10,292 nt of DNA from a virus (IMGVR_UViG_2681813316_000013:1-10292); one strand, 5' to 3'. Shown: positions 1-5,367, numbered from the stretch's first letter. The notes: generated by a model not told the origin, from the letters alone. Numbers and translations: made by a program.

Positions 1-469
1 TGCTGCTATTGGTGGTGGGGCTGTTGCCATAGCGTCTGTGCTCATCACTGGTCCGAGTGGTGACGATGGCCTGGAAGGTGTCAGCTACATACCATACGAA
101 GATATCGTTGGCGTATGGACTGTATGTCACGGACACACCGGAAAAGACATCATGCCCGGTAAAACGTATACCGAAGCAGAATGCAAAGCCCTCCTGAATA
201 AAGACCTTGCCACGGTCGCCAGACAAATAAACCCGTACATCAACGTCGATATACCGGAAACAACGCGCGGCGCTCTTTACTCGTTCGTTTACAACGTGGG
301 CGCTGGCAATTTCAGAACATCGACGCTTCTTCGCAAAATAAACCAGGGCGATATCAAAGGCGCATGTGATCAGCTACGGCGCTGGACATACGCTGGCGGT
401 AAGCAATGGAAAGGGCTGATGACTCGCCGTGAGATTGAGCGTGAAGTCTGTTTGTGGGGGCAACAATGA
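1..469 (+). CDS. R: SAR endolysin (phage lysozyme, T4-lysozyme-like GH24 family), 5'-partial; reading frame phase starts at position 2
   Basis: Frame is open from the window edge to TGA 467-469. Translation ...[49 protein letters not shown]... has a Gly/Ala-rich signal-anchor-release segment followed by a lysozyme core with E-8aa-D-5aa-T spacing (LEG...YEDIVGVWT) as in T4 lysozyme E11/D20/T26 and phage 21 R. The true start lies upstream of the window. Confidence 0.9.
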
Positions 470-903
470 GCAGAGTAACCGCGATTATCTACGTTCTGGT
501 CATCTGCCTCATCGTCTGCCTTTCATGGGCTGTTAATCATTACCGTGATAACGCCATCGCCTACAAAGAGCAGCGCGATAAAGCCACATCCATCATCGCT
601 GATATGCAGAAGCGGCAACGTGATGTAGCAGAACTTGACGCCAGATACACAAAGGAGCTTGCTGATGCTAATGCGACTATCGAAAGTCTCCGTGCTGATG
701 TTTCTGCTGGGCGTAAGCGCCTGCAAGTCGCCGCCACCTGTGCAAAGTCAACGACCGGAGCCAGCGGCATGGGCAATGGAGAAACCCTAGGACTTACAGC
801 AGATGCTGAACTCAATTATTACCGTCTCCGAAGTGGAATCGACAGGATAACCGCGCAGGTTAACTACTTGCAGGAGTACATTAGGACGCAATGCCTTCGA
901 TGA
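466..903 (+). CDS. Rz: Rz-like inner-membrane spanin (i-spanin)
   Basis: ATG 466-468 overlaps the R stop (ATGA). N-terminal TM segment ([20 protein letters not shown]) followed by a charged, coiled-coil-like periplasmic region, immediately downstream of the endolysin gene. The ORF track's GTG start at 454 is judged less likely. Confidence 0.85.
665..790 (+). CDS. Rz1: Rz1-like outer-membrane lipoprotein spanin (o-spanin), embedded in the +1 frame of Rz
   Basis: AAGGAG at 651-656 lies 8 nt before ATG 665. Translation [41 protein letters not shown] has a signal peptide with a lipobox-like VSAC and a short Pro-rich mature part; stop TAG 788-790. Fully nested inside Rz, the classic Rz/Rz1 arrangement. 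Alternative start ATG 671. Confidence 0.65.
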
Positions 904-975
904 TAGCGATAATTTTCCCATTATCTTTTATATGCGTGATTTTAGTTAGTTTTAGTCGCAACACGAATAAAACAG

Positions 976-1002
976 AGAACCACCCGCTATACGAGTGGTT
1001 CT
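976..1002. terminator. Convergent (bidirectional) terminator-like hairpin between Rz and a minus-strand ORF
   Basis: 8-bp stem AGAACCAC (976-983) / GTGGTTCT (995-1002) with an 11-nt loop. On the minus strand it is followed by CTGTTTTATTCG (good U-tract) and begins 17 nt after the stop of the minus ORF 1020-1250. On the plus strand the downstream tract (GATTTACACTTTT) is weaker. Confidence 0.4.
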
Positions 1003-1019
1003 GATTTACACTTTTGAAA

Positions 1020-1250
1020 CTAAAAGCTAAATACTTGAGCAAGAACAGCTAACGCTGCGCAAAAAGCAGCCCGTTTATTCCATTTACTTTGTATTTCAAT
1101 GGCTTTAAAACAACCCAGTGATGAGAAACTGCCTTGTTCCGTTTTTGGTGGGTGTTCTTTGGAAGATGCAAAACATGAAATAATCCAAAAAATGGCGGAA
1201 AAAATTCCAAAAATTATTGAAGGCAAATGATGCTCTTTCAAAAACTCCAT
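1020..1250 (-). CDS. Hypothetical small membrane protein (76 aa), moron candidate in the position where lambda carries bor but unrelated to Bor
   Basis: 76-codon ORF with a true ATG start (complement of 1248-1250) in roughly 40% GC DNA. Predicted TM helix (PSIIFGIFSAIFWIISCF) and hydrophobic C-terminus (AAFCAALAVLAQVF). Followed on its own strand by the hairpin plus U-tract at 976-1002. Only a weak SD (GAGAG); no family recognised. Confidence 0.35.
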   Translation of the reverse strand: MEFLKEHHLPSIIFGIFSAIFWIISCFASSKEHPPKTEQGSFSSLGCFKAIEIQSKWNKRAAFCAALAVLAQVFSF

Positions 1251-1862
1251 GACTTAACTCTCTTAAAAGTTGCTAAACATCGCTCGCAAACAAGAAAGAA
1301 AAGTTCTGTTGCGAGCACTCCACAATTTAAACGCCACACAAGCAGCTATTAGGTGGACGGTTCCAAGATTGCTATCAACTGCCACCCGAATACCGTCAAA
1401 ACTTGACGTCCAACCAAGAATTATTGAGTTGTAAACTCAACGCAATGATCTGGTTGGTATAAATGTGACATATGTCATGAATCGACTAGTTGAGATAGTC
1501 AAGATGGGCTTGCTTGACATCATCACCACAACCGGAGCCAACAATGGCAGATTGCGTTACCCAGATTTGATAAAGGCATTTTAGCCTGACATAACTATGC
1601 ACTGTATCGTCGCCGTATTCCCGCATCAACAGAGACCACAGCCCGAGAGGGAGACTCCTCTGCGCGAGTGTGCGGGGATAATCAAAAACGATACACACCG
1701 GGGTTTACCGTGTTAACGGAGCGCGGCGTTGTCCCCTCATGGTCGCTGGTCCGGTGCGATGGTGGAAGAAACCGGACGATGTGTTACCTCGCAAACTCTG
1801 TTATGTCATGTGTCTGATTTGTGATTTAAGTCGGATAATTGTCATTGCCATTAAGCAGAGGA

Positions 1863-1904
1863 TTGATGACCGACAGGGCTGCATTGTTAGAATAAGACTT
1901 ATTC
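1863..1904 (+). promoter_or_regulatory. Candidate sigma70 promoter with extended -10 and overlapping palindromic operator upstream of the TonB-C lipoprotein gene
   Basis: -35-like TTGATG (1863-1868), extended -10 TGtTAGAAT (1885-1893), and a perfect 7-1-7 palindrome GAATAAG-A-CTTATTC (1890-1904) overlapping the -10 and predicted start site, about 22 nt upstream of ATG 1926. Confidence 0.3.
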
Positions 1905-1925
1905 TTATCTATGCCGGGAATAAAA

Positions 1926-2252
1926 ATGAAAAGAAATCTTCCGTTAATTATTTTGTTGTCTTCTTTGGTTATGGGCTGTACGCAACATAAAACAGATATG
2001 CCTCGACAGTTGGTTAAGGCATTACCACAATATCCGGCCTATGCCGCGGCAAATTATATAAAGGGACGGGTTGATGTGAAGTTTGATATTGGTGCTGATG
2101 GTACTGTCACCCGAATTGAGTTTATCCGTTCAGAGCCGCACCATCTGTTTGATGAGCAGGTTGTAAAGGCGATGGCAAAATGGCGATTTGAGAAGGACAA
2201 GCCGCGTAAAGGCGTGAAGAAAACATTTATCTTTAGTCCTTCAGCACCCTGA
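1926..2252 (+). CDS. Lipoprotein with TonB C-terminal domain (free TonB-CTD, no TonB N-terminal anchor or Pro-rich spacer)
   Basis: Translation MKRNLPLIILLSSLVMGC/TQHK... has a signal peptide with lipobox-like VMGC and +2 Thr. The mature part ...PQYPAYAAANYIKGRVDVKFDIGADGTVTRIEFIRSEPHHLFDEQVVKAMAKWRFEKDKPRKGVKKTFIFSP matches E. coli TonB C-domain motifs (YPxxA...G.V.VKFD...DG.V...P...F...V..AM..WR.E..KP..G) as I recall them. Alternative start ATG 1911. Confidence 0.8.
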   Translation: MKRNLPLIILLSSLVMGCTQHKTDMPRQLVKALPQYPAYAAANYIKGRVDVKFDIGADGTVTRIEFIRSEPHHLFDEQVVKAMAKWRFEKDKPRKGVKKTFIFSPSAP

Positions 2253-2711
2253 TTATTTTATCAGAAGTTAATTATCACTCTGTTGCTATTCAGTACATCC
2301 CTGCAGGGTAAAGTCTTGTTTCGCCGGATATGAAGATGAAATATTGTTAGAAGACAGTAGCTACCGGTTCCTGTAACCGAACGTTCATTTCTCGTTATTT
2401 TTCATGCTGGCCGGGCGCAGGTGCTTTGCATCTGTTGCCAGCCTTCTCCTGCAGGCTTCAATAACCCATGCCGAAAAATTACCCGATCCCTTACGTTCAA
2501 GGGCAATATGGATTTGATTAATCATCTGGTTTGGGAAGCTTTATTTTTTGATGACATTGTGTTTTTCCGTGTTCAGTGCTGCTGATTTGTATTGTCTTAA
2601 GATGTCTTTACGTTAAGTTGACACAGATCAATTAATGCATGACTTGGACAAAATTGATTATTTGTCGTGGTTTTATGGTGTACGTGGGATGTGTGATGGT
2701 ATTTATATAAA

Positions 2712-2726
2712 TGATAATTATTATCA
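2712..2726. promoter_or_regulatory. Fur-box-like perfect 7-1-7 palindrome TGATAAT-T-ATTATCA
   Basis: TGATAATTATTATCA is a perfect inverted repeat. The enclosing 19-mer ATAAATGATAATTATTATC (2707-2725) matches the classical Fur consensus GATAATGATAATCATTATC at 15/19 positions. It lies 37 bp upstream of cosN in AT-rich DNA; the target gene is unclear. Confidence 0.3.
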
Positions 2727-2762
2727 TTTATTGGGTCCTTTCCGGCGATCCGGCAGGCTACG

Positions 2763-2774
2763 GGGCGGCGACCT
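2763..2774 (+). other. cosN: cosN, cohesive-end nicking site of the phage genome (lambda / phage 21 type 12-nt cohesive end)
   Basis: GGGCGGCGACCT at 2763-2774 followed by CGCGGGTTTTCGCTATTTATGAAAATTTTCCGG, which matches the lambda left end as I recall it. It sits about 195 bp upstream of the small terminase start, the same spacing as lambda cosN to Nu1. Confidence 0.85.
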
Positions 2775-2810
2775 CGCGGGTTTTCGCTATTTATGAAAAT
2801 TTTCCGGGAT

Positions 2811-2915
2811 CCATGTCCGGTTTCTCTTCAAGTTAACTATATGAAAAATATAAAAACAGGTCTTCTGTGAACCGGACATGAACAAAAAACAGACATGTAA
2901 ACCGGACATGACCGG
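2811..2915 (+). repeat. cosB: cosB-like region: three copies of a CCGGACATG element (candidate small-terminase binding sites R3/R2/R1) separated by an AT-rich spacer
   Basis: CATGTCCGG (2812-2820, inverted), AACCGGACATG (2870-2880) and AACCGGACATG (2900-2910, followed by ACCGG), plus a partial GACATG at 2892-2897. The A/T-rich stretch 2821-2860 between first and second copy is where an IHF-type bend site would be expected. All lie between cosN and the small terminase gene. Confidence 0.6.
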
Positions 2916-2957
2916 TTTTGTTGTGATTGTGAGGTGAGAGTTTTTGCGAGGTGAGGA

Positions 2958-3467
2958 GTGGCTACGCAGACTGAAGTTGCCAGGCATTTAAGTCTGACCG
3001 ATCGCCAGCTTCGCAGATTGCAGAAATTGCCGGGTGCCCCGATATCGAATAAGCGAGGGCAACTGGATCTGGATGCCTGGCGCGATTTTTACATATCGTA
3101 TCTGAGGAGAAGTAAAAACGATGTGCCTGATGGCGATAGCGAAGACGACTATGAGGAGAAATTGCTTATTGCCAGATGGGAACTGACAGCAGAACAGGCT
3201 GTTACACAGCAGTTAAAAAATGAGGTGTCAAAAGGAAAACTTATTGACACCGGGTTCTGTATTTTTGCCCTCAGTAAGCTGGCAATGGCGTTATCCAGTA
3301 CGCTTGATTCCATCCCTTTATCCATGCAGCGACAGTTTTCTGATTTAACACCGCGCCATCTTGACCATCTGAAAACCCTTATTGCTAAGGGGGCAAATCA
3401 GTGTGCGCGGGCAGGGGATAAATTACCGGATTTACTCGATGAATATATCAGAGCAACAACTGAATAA
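2958..3467 (+). CDS. nu1: Terminase small subunit (Nu1 family)
   Basis: GTG start at 2958, with GAGG at 2948-2951 six nt upstream. Translation aligns with lambda Nu1, especially the C-terminal two-thirds (…TGFCIFALSKLA…LDSIPLSMQRQFSDL…HLDHLK…LPDLLDEYI…). The N-terminal DNA-binding region is diverged. Stop TAA 3465-3467 overlaps the large terminase start. Confidence 0.9.
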   Translation: MATQTEVARHLSLTDRQLRRLQKLPGAPISNKRGQLDLDAWRDFYISYLRRSKNDVPDGDSEDDYEEKLLIARWELTAEQAVTQQLKNEVSKGKLIDTGFCIFALSKLAMALSSTLDSIPLSMQRQFSDLTPRHLDHLKTLIAKGANQCARAGDKLPDLLDEYIRATTE

Positions 3468-5367
3468 TATGATGGCTGCCGTTTCGGTTGCGCTGCAGCC
3501 TCTGGTCAGGGTTGTACCAATGACGGCAGTTGAATGGGCTGATCAAAATTATTATCTGCCTAAAGAATCTTCATATGGTGAGGGAGAATGGAAAACGCTG
3601 CCATTCCAGATCGCCATTATGAACTGTATGGGTAACGACCAGGTTCGCACGGTTAACCTGATTAAATCTGCCCGTGTTGGCTATACAAAGATGTTGCTGG
3701 GGGTGGTCGGGTATTTTATTGAGCATAAATCCCGAAACAGTCTGCTTTTTCAGCCCACGGATTCTGCCGCTGAAGATTTTATGAAGTCTCACGTGGAGGC
3801 GACGATTCGGAACGTGCCATGCCTGAAAGACCTTTCCCCATGGCTGGGGCGTAAACATCGTGACAATACTCTCACGCTGAAACGCTTTTCATCGGGCGTC
3901 GGTTTCTGGTGCCTGGGCGGCGCTGCCGCCAAAAACTACCGTGAAAAATCCGTGGACGTGGTCTGCTATGACGAACTTTCCTCGTTCGAGCCGGATGTCG
4001 AAAAAGAGGGCTCGCCAACCCTGCTGGGGGATAAGCGTATTGAGGGGTCGGTGTGGCCAAAATCCATTCGCGGCTCGACGCCTAAAATCAAAGGCACCTG
4101 CCAGATCGAAAAAGCCGCTAACGAGTCGGCGCATTTTATGCGTTTTTATGTGCCCTGCCCGCACTGTGGGGAGGAGCAGTATCTGAAATTTGGCGATGAG
4201 TCCACGCCTTTTGGGCTTAAATGGGAGAAGGACAGCCCTGAAAGTGTTTTCTACCTCTGTGAACATCATGGCTGCGTGATCCATCAGTCTGAACTGGACC
4301 AGAGCAACGGGCGGTGGATCTGTGAAAACACGGGCATGTGGACCCGTGACGGTCTGACGTTTTTCAGCGCCCGGGGTGATGAAATTCCGCCGCCGCGCTC
4401 CATCACGTTCCATATCTGGACGGCGTACAGTCCGTTCACCACCTGGGTACAGATTGTCTATGACTGGCTGGATGCACTGAAAGATCCCAACGGCCTGAAA
4501 ACCTTTGTGAACACCACGCTGGGCGAGACCTGGGAAGAGGCCGTGGGCGAAAAACTCGATCACCAGGTACTGATGGATAAGGTGGTGCGTTACACGGCGG
4601 CGGTGCCTGCCCGGGTGGTTTATCTGACGGCGGGCATTGACTCGCAGCGAAACCGTTTTGAGATGTATGTCTGGGGATGGGCTCCGGGAGAGGAAGCCTT
4701 TCTGGTGGATAAAATCATCATTATGGGGCGTCCTGATGAGGAAGAGACGCTGTTACGTGTGGATGCGGCGATCAACAAAAAATACCGCCATGCGGATGGC
4801 ACCGAAATGACTATTTCCCGTGTCTGCTGGGACACCGGGGGGATCGATGGTGAAATTGTTTATCAGAGATCAAAAAAACACGGTGTTTTCCGGGTGCTGC
4901 CGGTAAAAGGCGCATCTGTCTATGGCAAGCCGGTGATCACCATGCCAAAAACCCGCAATCAGCGGGGCGTGTATCTGTGTGAAGTGGGAACGGACACCGC
5001 AAAAGAAATTCTCTATGCCCGTATGAAAGCCGATCCCTCGCCTGCGGATGAAGCCACGTCGTATGCCATCCGTTTTCCTGATGATCCGGAGATTTTTTCG
5101 CAGACAGAGGCGCAGCAACTGGTGGCGGAAGAGCTGGTGGAGAAGTGGGAAAAAGGAAAGATGCGTCTGCTGTGGGATAACAAAAAGCGGCGTAACGAAG
5201 CGCTGGACTGCCTGGTGTATGCCTACGCGGCATTACGTGTGTCCGTGCAACGCTGGCAGCTTGATCTGGCTGTACTGGCAAAATCCCGGGAAGAAGAGAC
5301 GACCCGGCCAACCCTGAAAGAACTGGCAGCGAAGCTGTCCGGAGGAGTGAATGGTTACAGTCGCTGA
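3439..5367 (+). CDS. A: Terminase large subunit (gpA family; ATPase and nuclease)
   Basis: ATG 3439 gives MNISEQQLNN..., colinear with lambda gpA (MNISNSQVNR...) over about 642 aa, including TAVEWAD.NYYLPKES, KSARVGY.KMLLG, GFWCLGG.AAKNYREKSVDV, GDKRIEGSVWPKSIRGSTPK, WTAYSPFTTWVQIV, VNTTLGETWE, KKRRNEALDC. The ORF track's start at 3382 is an upstream in-frame extension with no support. Confidence 0.95.
   Translation: MNISEQQLNNMMAAVSVALQPLVRVVPMTAVEWADQNYYLPKESSYGEGEWKTLPFQIAIMNCMGNDQVRTVNLIKSARVGYTKMLLGVVGYFIEHKSRNSLLFQPTDSAAEDFMKSHVEATIRNVPCLKDLSPWLGRKHRDNTLTLKRFSSGVGFWCLGGAAAKNYREKSVDVVCYDELSSFEPDVEKEGSPTLLGDKRIEGSVWPKSIRGSTPKIKGTCQIEKAANESAHFMRFYVPCPHCGEEQYLKFGDESTPFGLKWEKDSPESVFYLCEHHGCVIHQSELDQSNGRWICENTGMWTRDGLTFFSARGDEIPPPRSITFHIWTAYSPFTTWVQIVYDWLDALKDPNGLKTFVNTTLGETWEEAVGEKLDHQVLMDKVVRYTAAVPARVVYLTAGIDSQRNRFEMYVWGWAPGEEAFLVDKIIIMGRPDEEETLLRVDAAINKKYRHADGTEMTISRVCWDTGGIDGEIVYQRSKKHGVFRVLPVKGASVYGKPVITMPKTRNQRGVYLCEVGTDTAKEILYARMKADPSPADEATSYAIRFPDDPEIFSQTEAQQLVAEELVEKWEKGKMRLLWDNKKRRNEALDCLVYAYAALRVSVQRWQLDLAVLAKSREEETTRPTLKELAAKLSGGVNGYSR

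Follow-up and report, generated by a model that had tools for sequence, protein, structure and literature searches.

An antisense gene for a predicted membrane protein between the lysis and packaging genes of a lambdoid Escherichia coli prophage

In phage lambda, the small accessory gene bor directly follows Rz, on the opposite strand, and converges on it; Bor, an envelope protein, is an outer-membrane lipoprotein. In phage P22, the 86-codon gene pid lies where the lysis region meets the packaging genes, in opposite orientation to the late operon. Its product is a soluble ORFan protein that derepresses the dgo operon of the host, and its site is a moron locus at which related phages carry either no insert or a different one (PMC3573128). 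The expression of pid has been mapped experimentally. Transcription starts 174 nt upstream of the gene at a weak promoter, Ppid, with an eroded -10 element, AATCCT, that was defined by mutation, and the proximal 244 bp contain no other promoter (PMC8835761). The transcript of 476 nt has a long leader, which is also processed to a shorter mRNA species; its terminator hairpin is required for mRNA stability, and the wild-type promoter is too weak for a phenotype in lysogens (PMC8835761).

Published features of morons are extra DNA that is absent in related phages, a deviant base composition, and a promoter and a terminator of their own (PMC3594210). Several small inner-membrane proteins that mediate superinfection exclusion, i.e. 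HK97 gp15, T4 Imm, and P22 SieA, are encoded by morons or prophages (PMC3594210). Here we compare these systems with ORF76, a small minus-strand gene in a stretch of 10,292 nt of viral DNA, referred to as the window, which represents the late region of a lambdoid E. coli prophage with the late genes on the plus strand. The same stretch is present in the enteropathogenic strain EPEC E2348/69 and in ten more complete E. coli genomes.

The antisense gene and its surroundings

The features of the window that are relevant for the gene and its neighbourhood are as follows.

38-469, plus strand: lysozyme gene RrrD
454/466-903, plus strand: Rz-type lysis gene
929-1289, unstranded: AT-rich cargo segment, GC ~0.36, with patchy presence among genomes
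975-966, minus strand: U-rich tract CUGUUUUAUU after the hairpin
1002-976, minus strand: intrinsic terminator hairpin of 12 pairs including 2 G-U, loop of 3, beginning 17 nt after the ORF76 stop
1250-1020, minus strand: ORF76, 76 codons plus stop (ATG at 1250, TAG at 1022-1020); RefSeq WP_157778920.1, PHROG 14357 family
1264-1258, minus strand: Shine-Dalgarno-like AAGAGAG, 7 nt before the ATG
1270-1585, plus strand: fossil Terminase_2-type small-terminase gene (terS), start codon lost, in-frame TAA, truncated
1911/1926-2252, plus strand: TonB_C lipoprotein-like ORF of 108-113 aa (Pfam TonB_C, E = 2.7e-15)
2958-3467, plus strand: Nu1-type terminase subunit
3382-5367, plus strand: GpA-type terminase subunit

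The terminase genes are followed on the plus strand by the genes for gpW head-tail joining, portal, protease, decoration, and major capsid proteins.

The original prediction described a minus-strand ORF of 76 codons with a real ATG that runs antiparallel to the late genes in a bor-like position. This ORF is present at 1250-1020, as are all the other described features at their respective positions; it converges on the Rz-type gene and has already been annotated by RefSeq as a "hypothetical protein" (WP_157778920.1). A longer frame is not possible, because an in-frame TAA is located two codons 5′ of the ATG. Judged by its sequence and spacing, AAGAGAG could be used as a Shine-Dalgarno sequence; the orthologues of Citrobacter and Salmonella have GGAG or AGGAG at the same position and spacing.

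The orthologues keep the reading frame, with 74% identity in Citrobacter sedlakii and 64% in Salmonella enterica. The dN/dS values (NG86) are 0.19 and 0.15, respectively, and the substitutions at codon positions 1/2/3 amount to 13/12/26 and 20/14/34, i.e. there is an excess at the third position. In Citrobacter, the ORFs of the plus strand (1099-1230 and 1227-1352) are not kept (43 aa here versus 23 aa). These comparisons show that ORF76 is a protein-coding gene under purifying selection, in support of the coding capacity that had been proposed. The homologue P0003, from assembly L004 (GCA_900448305.1), contains frameshifts. We attribute these to sequencing error, because the neighbouring genes in that assembly are fragmented too. 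Nearly every gene of L004 is frameshifted, including those for terminase, TonB_C, Rz, and P0003, which is typical of uncorrected long-read indel errors.

A hairpin of 8 bp and a T-rich tract had been predicted 17 nt past the stop codon, and both were recovered at 1002-976 and 975-966. The stem of eight perfect base pairs is extendable to 12 via G-U pairs that exist on the minus strand only. The folding energy of the hairpin region is -21.5 kcal/mol (z = -4.1) for the minus strand, compared with -13.9 kcal/mol (z = -2.9) for the plus strand. Because the minus-strand fold is the stronger one, the terminator is oriented with ORF76, and these calculations show that the gene ends at a strand-specific, predicted intrinsic terminator. 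Downstream terminators are common in the family, albeit not universal. The terminator hairpin alone (972-1015) has 86% identity over 44 nt to a site within a hypothetical-protein gene of Escherichia phage Chlobot.

ORF76 is the cargo gene of a classical moron, which separates the lysis cassette from the packaging genes and is oriented opposite to the late operon. The full segment was found in 11 of 5426 complete E. coli genomes and in none of 50,697 phage records, while about 1900 of the genomes match the adjacent Rz end only. Homology to other prophages breaks off near 928 towards Rz and is regained at 1290 towards the terS fossil. The base composition is deviant, with GC values of 0.355-0.375 over 901-1300 versus 0.50-0.545 in the flanking lysis genes; the comparison value for the segment is 0.52. 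The gene has the predicted terminator described above, stronger on the minus strand, and, as a candidate promoter for the repressed prophage, a sequence that is homologous to the mapped Ppid of P22 and matches the consensus weakly (6 of 12 positions). Morons are a known kind of element, to which ORF76 adds new cargo from a catalogued but uncharacterised family.

Several additional observations were made in the region between the lysis and capsid genes. The TonB_C ORF sits in a second AT-rich patch (GC 0.35-0.39) and probably represents a second moron that separates lysis from packaging genes; its PHROG 1267 label, "Rz-like spanin", looks like a mislabel. The minus strand of 2385-2525 contains a 46-aa ORF, a DUF3950 domain protein according to RefSeq, which is a further small antisense gene upstream of Nu1. 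An Rfam scan of 800-3000 returned nothing. Within 1546-1900, which has 92-93% identity to Stx1a/Stx2 converting phages and is mostly unannotated there, a GC-rich patch (1601-1800, 0.575) has neither a convincing ORF nor an Rfam match.

Upstream DNA shared with the pid locus of P22

The DNA upstream of ORF76 contains the terS fossil, which was identified by comparison with the intact TerS of Citrobacter (tblastn, E = 4.6e-19); the match to Pfam Terminase_2 (E = 4.5e-4) is below the cut-off. This Terminase_2 fossil resides in a phage that packages with Nu1/GpA. Positions 1290-1551 have 86.5% identity over 260 aligned nt to P22, where the counterpart is an unannotated stretch between orf201 and orf80 and the fossil occupies 1188-1465 of the P22 record (L038). 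Directly beyond the homologous stretch, on the minus strand, P22 carries pid in the place that is taken by ORF76 in the window. The two ORFs themselves have no similarity, and homology starts only at the terS fossil.

The two genes therefore share slot and orientation, both are divergent from the same terS fossil, both are small (86 aa versus 76 aa), and each has its own Rho-independent terminator, which for ORF76 is a predicted one. They differ in the distance from the start of the terS fossil to the start of the ORF (~26 nt for ORF76, 46 nt for pid), in the terminator, and in the putative ribosome-binding site, which ORF76 supplies itself. The cargoes are unrelated, i.e. a predicted two-helix membrane protein in contrast to the soluble Pid. 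Because the promoter and 5′-UTR DNA are homologous and the position is the same, we regard ORF76 as an alternative cargo in the pid slot, which extends this slot of P22 to E. coli lambdoid prophages with different cargo. Terminase is not mentioned in PMC3573128, and neither terminase nor a pseudogene or remnant is mentioned in PMC8835761. The "exceptionally long 5′UTR" of pid can now be explained as the antisense of a dead small-terminase gene.

The alignment to P22 yielded the following predicted elements.

1445-1440, minus strand: predicted -35 box TTGCGT (TTGCTT in P22), followed by a 17-nt spacer
1422-1417, minus strand: predicted -10 box AATTCT (AATCCT in Ppid of P22)
1410-1251, minus strand: predicted 5′-UTR of ~160 nt, antisense of the terS fossil; the P22 transcription start aligns to 1410, and the P22 leader has 174 nt

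In P22, the promoter was recovered at the published distance as TTGCTT-17-AATCCT. The window has TTGCGT-17-AATTCT as its counterpart, and the intact terS of Citrobacter contains TTGCGT-17-AATCCT. The promoter predicted for the window was missed by a consensus scan because only 6 of 12 positions match, a value that would agree with the weakness measured for the promoter in P22. By analogy, an ORF76 mRNA of ~440 nt is predicted, extending from ~1410 to ~966 with a leader of ~160 nt. Promoter-like sequences of the form TTGCG(T/C)-17-(A/G)AT(C/T)CT were found inside several of the intact terS genes examined, where they lie over the codons for RIxELKxQRND.

We also considered, and rejected, a proximal promoter, TTGCGT-17-GGTACT, which most homologues carry ~70 nt before the ORF. 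The window has a degraded version of it (TTGTGT-16-AGTGCT). In P22, a 232-bp proximal fragment that includes the element was inactive as a promoter, and truncated 5′-UTRs that keep it yielded no shorter transcript (PMC8835761).

The linkage to terS is not confined to the window. Among 17 distinct contexts, there are 12 in which the family gene and the initial codons of a Terminase_2 terS point away from each other, their start codons being ~26 nt apart. The state of terS beside the family gene differs as follows.

terS intact: Citrobacter, viral contigs L030-L033
terS long fossil: the window, L027, L036
terS remnant of 23-35 codons: Salmonella, Pantoea, L026, L029

For L013, L028, and L037, tblastn gave no terS match, and fragments of the block GGTACTCGCGACAGAACATTTCTTGTTTGTCGGTGAGTGCCAT are still recognisable. 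This block corresponds to terS codons 1-14 in antisense orientation, ~110 nt upstream of the family gene (L003, L005, L015, L026-L033, L036, and L037). It is recognisable upstream of members with only 30-35% protein identity, and it persists even in non-prophage contexts and where the terS frame is broken. The members with very short terS remnants (24-31 codons) have no P22-like promoter and must use another one.

RNase E has a cleavage preference for RN|WUU, and the ACAUUU contained in GGTACTCGCGACAGAACATTTCTTGTTTGTCGGTGAGTGCCAT might, speculatively, be an RNase E-type site by its fit to this motif; the conserved ACAGAACAUUUCUUG block is a candidate for RNase E-dependent cleavage. GGTACTCGCGACAGAACATTTCTTGTTTGTCGGTGAGTGCCAT also overlaps the leader segment of P22 that is needed for the second, shorter pid mRNA (PMC8835761). 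The persistence of the block fits two readings. Either this part of the terS-derived DNA is needed for expression, possibly as a processing site, or the linkage is merely ancient, with terS homology acting as a recombination anchor. In the 89-aa subgroup described below, identity is ~0.94 in the ORF, ~0.88 at -60 to 0, ~0.75 at -110 to -60, and ~0.5 farther upstream. This steady fall indicates that the terS fossil is decaying and does not demonstrate a special constraint. A search of the leaders for a conserved anti-Shine-Dalgarno hairpin with RNAalifold gave a weak hairpin of 9 pairs (-3.4 kcal/mol) with little covariation.

A wider interpretation, which we put forward tentatively, is that the 5′ end of terS, alive or dead, is a shared antisense expression platform across enterobacterial temperate phages, into which cargoes including Pid and the ORF76 family plug. 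The fossil would then be kept for expression linked to the carrier state or to copy number, and the ORF76 family would be a new class of membrane effectors deployed at that time. If true, unrelated cargoes would receive a weak promoter with a long leader from the platform, and possibly a processing site as well.

Protein family, predicted topology, and distribution

An exhaustive HMMER search of 1.84 billion representatives returned ten homologues, all of 74-90 aa, with 36-71% identity. A profile search yielded 61 clusters from Enterobacterales, Stenotrophomonas, Bradyrhizobium, and metagenomic sources, mostly of 72-113 aa together with a few shorter fragments, none of which has a Pfam domain. 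Identity goes down to 30-36% at constant length. PHROG 14357 ("unknown function") is matched by nine of 11 members (best E = 1.9e-32), and by the ORF76 protein itself over its full length (E = 1.3e-6). The ORF76 family thus equals this PHROG, which is a catalogue cluster without a characterised member. The homology and structure search, which had been proposed as a check of the original prediction, thus led to a family of unknown function and, on the level of the fold, only to generic helical hairpins.

The scans of 11 members against Pfam, NCBIfam, and PADLOC returned chance-level values only, i.e. Tmemb_14 (E = 0.018), DUF7368 (0.01), and SLATT_5 (0.058). The last of these, from NCBIfam, concerns the two-TM effector domain SLATT; it was seen in one of 11 members, which is about chance over 11 queries, and Pfam SLATT was not matched. 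A PDB sequence search found nothing below E = 0.38. The Pfam families of T4 Imm and HK97 gp15/YebO had no match among the 11 members beyond sub-threshold chance values. Searches with four diverse members (tblastn) against 50,697 deposited phage genomes found no family member. The low-complexity filter does not account for this absence, because the same search does find the family in plasmid records.

A transmembrane helix and a hydrophobic C-terminus had been expected for the protein, and hydrophobic segments are indeed present at residues ~9-29 and 61-76. All members have two such segments, the second of which extends to the C-terminus. The AlphaFold2 model, calculated with the family alignment, is a confidently predicted helical hairpin with helices 2-27 and 45-75 (mean pLDDT 82.6). 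Among 16 family members, the numbers of lysine and arginine residues are 4-8 in the loop, 0-2 at the N-terminus, and 0 at the C-terminus. According to the positive-inside rule, the loop would be cytoplasmic and both ends periplasmic, and we infer an inner-membrane hairpin. A true second membrane span is not certain, as the second hydrophobic segment is short, with ~16 residues after K59/R60.

The invariant residues in the family alignment are A19, W22, S25, Q54, N58, A61, A62, A65, and Q72, and the family motif is Q-S-K-W/Y-N-x-x-A-A. The conserved small residues of either helix map to a single face (11/15/18/19/22/25 and 54/58/61/62/65/66/72), which in the model would fit a tightly packed hairpin. 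A lipobox-like sequence, IISC, is found at residues 23-26, with the Cys present only in the proteins of the window and of Citrobacter. The claim that the protein is unrelated to Bor stands, despite the shared position of the genes: Pfam gave no Bor match, and the lipobox-like sequence is not conserved across the ORF76 family.

The family gene is found in antisense orientation between spanin and terminase genes in six prophage types with quite different packaging modules.

E. coli: packaging module Nu1/GpA
Citrobacter: packaging module Terminase_2
Salmonella: packaging module DUF2280 / Terminase_6
Yersinia: family gene overlaps the end of Rz by 4 nt
Pantoea: packaging module of Sf6 type
Viral contig L037: Rz and DUF1441

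A second subgroup, of 89 aa, has >90% identity across the genera examined. Its members are also found in the neighbourhood of RnlA/RnlB together with tail-fibre and invertase genes, next to a plasmid-borne fragment of a NucC-like nuclease in Pseudomonas, and beside integrase remnants. A related 89-aa member from Pectobacterium (P0010) lies in a decayed prophage remnant that adjoins dusB-fis. Such a distribution is that of a mobile accessory gene. Defence genes among the neighbours are suggestive, albeit few in number; Pfam and PADLOC scans of the neighbours revealed no conserved partner gene.

Expression and possible functions

Taking all results together, we consider it probable that ORF76 is the moron cargo at the pid slot. 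Our best guess for its role, at low certainty, is that of an accessory inner-membrane protein of the lysogen or of the carrier state. Transcription would start at ~1410 from the weak, eroded sigma-70 promoter TTGCGT-17-AATTCT, as it does at Ppid in P22, and would yield the ~440-nt mRNA with its ~160-nt leader, which the terminator hairpin would stabilise. By analogy with pid, a low, leaky expression would be expected in the lysogen and a higher one when phage genome copies accumulate, i.e. in the carrier state or early in infection; Q-antiterminated late transcription of the other strand would work against it. Inserted into the inner membrane, the protein would form a tightly packed helical hairpin, its loop in the cytoplasm and both ends facing the periplasm. 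A benefit to the lysogen could be e.g. interference with genome entry or growth of other phages, as is the case for the small inner-membrane exclusion proteins.

Among the individual roles, we rank phage exclusion or defence first, and on its own we propose it only tentatively. By analogy, HK97 gp15, T4 Imm, and P22 SieA would represent the most likely functional class, although their genomic location differs from that of ORF76 and no sequence relation was found. A Pid-like modulation of the host comes next, followed by a membrane toxin and then by an effect on lysis timing. This order is a guess of low certainty, based on analogy and a loose neighbourhood only, and nothing discriminates firmly between the roles, nor between the exclusion, toxin, and serum-resistance factors that the original prediction had listed as possibilities. 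As a modulator of host physiology, ORF76 would be made mainly from unintegrated genomes in the carrier state and would act on a membrane component of the host, e.g. a transporter, sensor, or protease. Slot, promoter, and 5′-UTR are the same as for pid, carrier cells produce Pid, which retargets an operon of the host (PMC3573128, PMC8835761), and the conserved residues, all of them on the helix-contact faces, would suit a compact hairpin that docks on a partner. The lack of any sequence relation to Pid, which is soluble, and the occurrence of family members outside of prophage late regions speak against this possibility, which we regard as rather unlikely.

A membrane-damaging toxin, either an abortive-infection effector or an addiction peptide resembling type I toxins, with an mRNA restrained by its long, structured leader and by a late transcript of full complementarity, is unlikely. 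The protein is small and hydrophobic, the gene is antisense to a heavily transcribed operon, the long 5′-UTR of P22 is processed to a shorter species (PMC8835761), and some relatives adjoin toxin-antitoxin and nuclease genes; however, with 75-90 aa and two helices, it is larger than the classical type I toxins, PADLOC gave no match, and neither an antitoxin sRNA nor a conserved RNA structure was found (alifold -3.4 kcal/mol with little covariation, no Rfam match). That ORF76 is a holin- or antiholin-like factor tied to the adjacent lysis cassette and involved in lysis timing appears very improbable. The gene does adjoin the spanin gene in six prophage types, and in size and two-helix arrangement the product is reminiscent of class II holins, but the gene lies on the strand opposite to the lysis cassette, so that it is not co-expressed with the late genes, holin families were not matched in Pfam or PHROGs, and relatives occur far from lysis genes. 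We give similarly little credence to the view that ORF76 is unexpressed in the window, as a chance ORF or silent, decaying cargo whose conservation stems from plus-strand or DNA-level features. An eroded promoter, frameshifts in one assembly, and E. coli copies that are 99-100% identical and thus uninformative on current selection are compatible with it. Against it stand the dN/dS of ~0.17 in the minus-strand frame, a protein family that is kept to 30-36% identity at constant length, the lack of conservation of the plus-strand ORFs (43 aa here, 23 aa in Citrobacter), and the fragmented neighbouring genes in the assembly with the frameshifted copy.

The preferred reading, moron cargo that encodes an accessory envelope factor, places the PHROG 14357 family in a defined expression context, in which it becomes testable for exclusion, toxicity, and host modulation, e.g. 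in EPEC E2348/69. In the prophage of this strain (L001), ISEc13 and IS200C are located at 758-2727, between the SASA esterase and holin genes; they are absent in strain DCE7, and late gene expression may be defective in the copy of E2348/69.

Additional ORFs accompany the family gene in some of its other contexts. In L031 (4630-5091, plus strand), and also in L030 and L032, an ORF of 153 aa with two hydrophobic segments and without a Pfam or PADLOC match follows the family gene and is co-oriented with it; this ORF could be a second cargo gene within that antisense unit. In the Salmonella prophage L005 (4419-4847, plus strand), an ORF of 142 aa without a family match is located upstream of a terS remnant of 31 codons and is co-oriented with the family gene, a layout suggestive of an antisense unit of two genes with another promoter.
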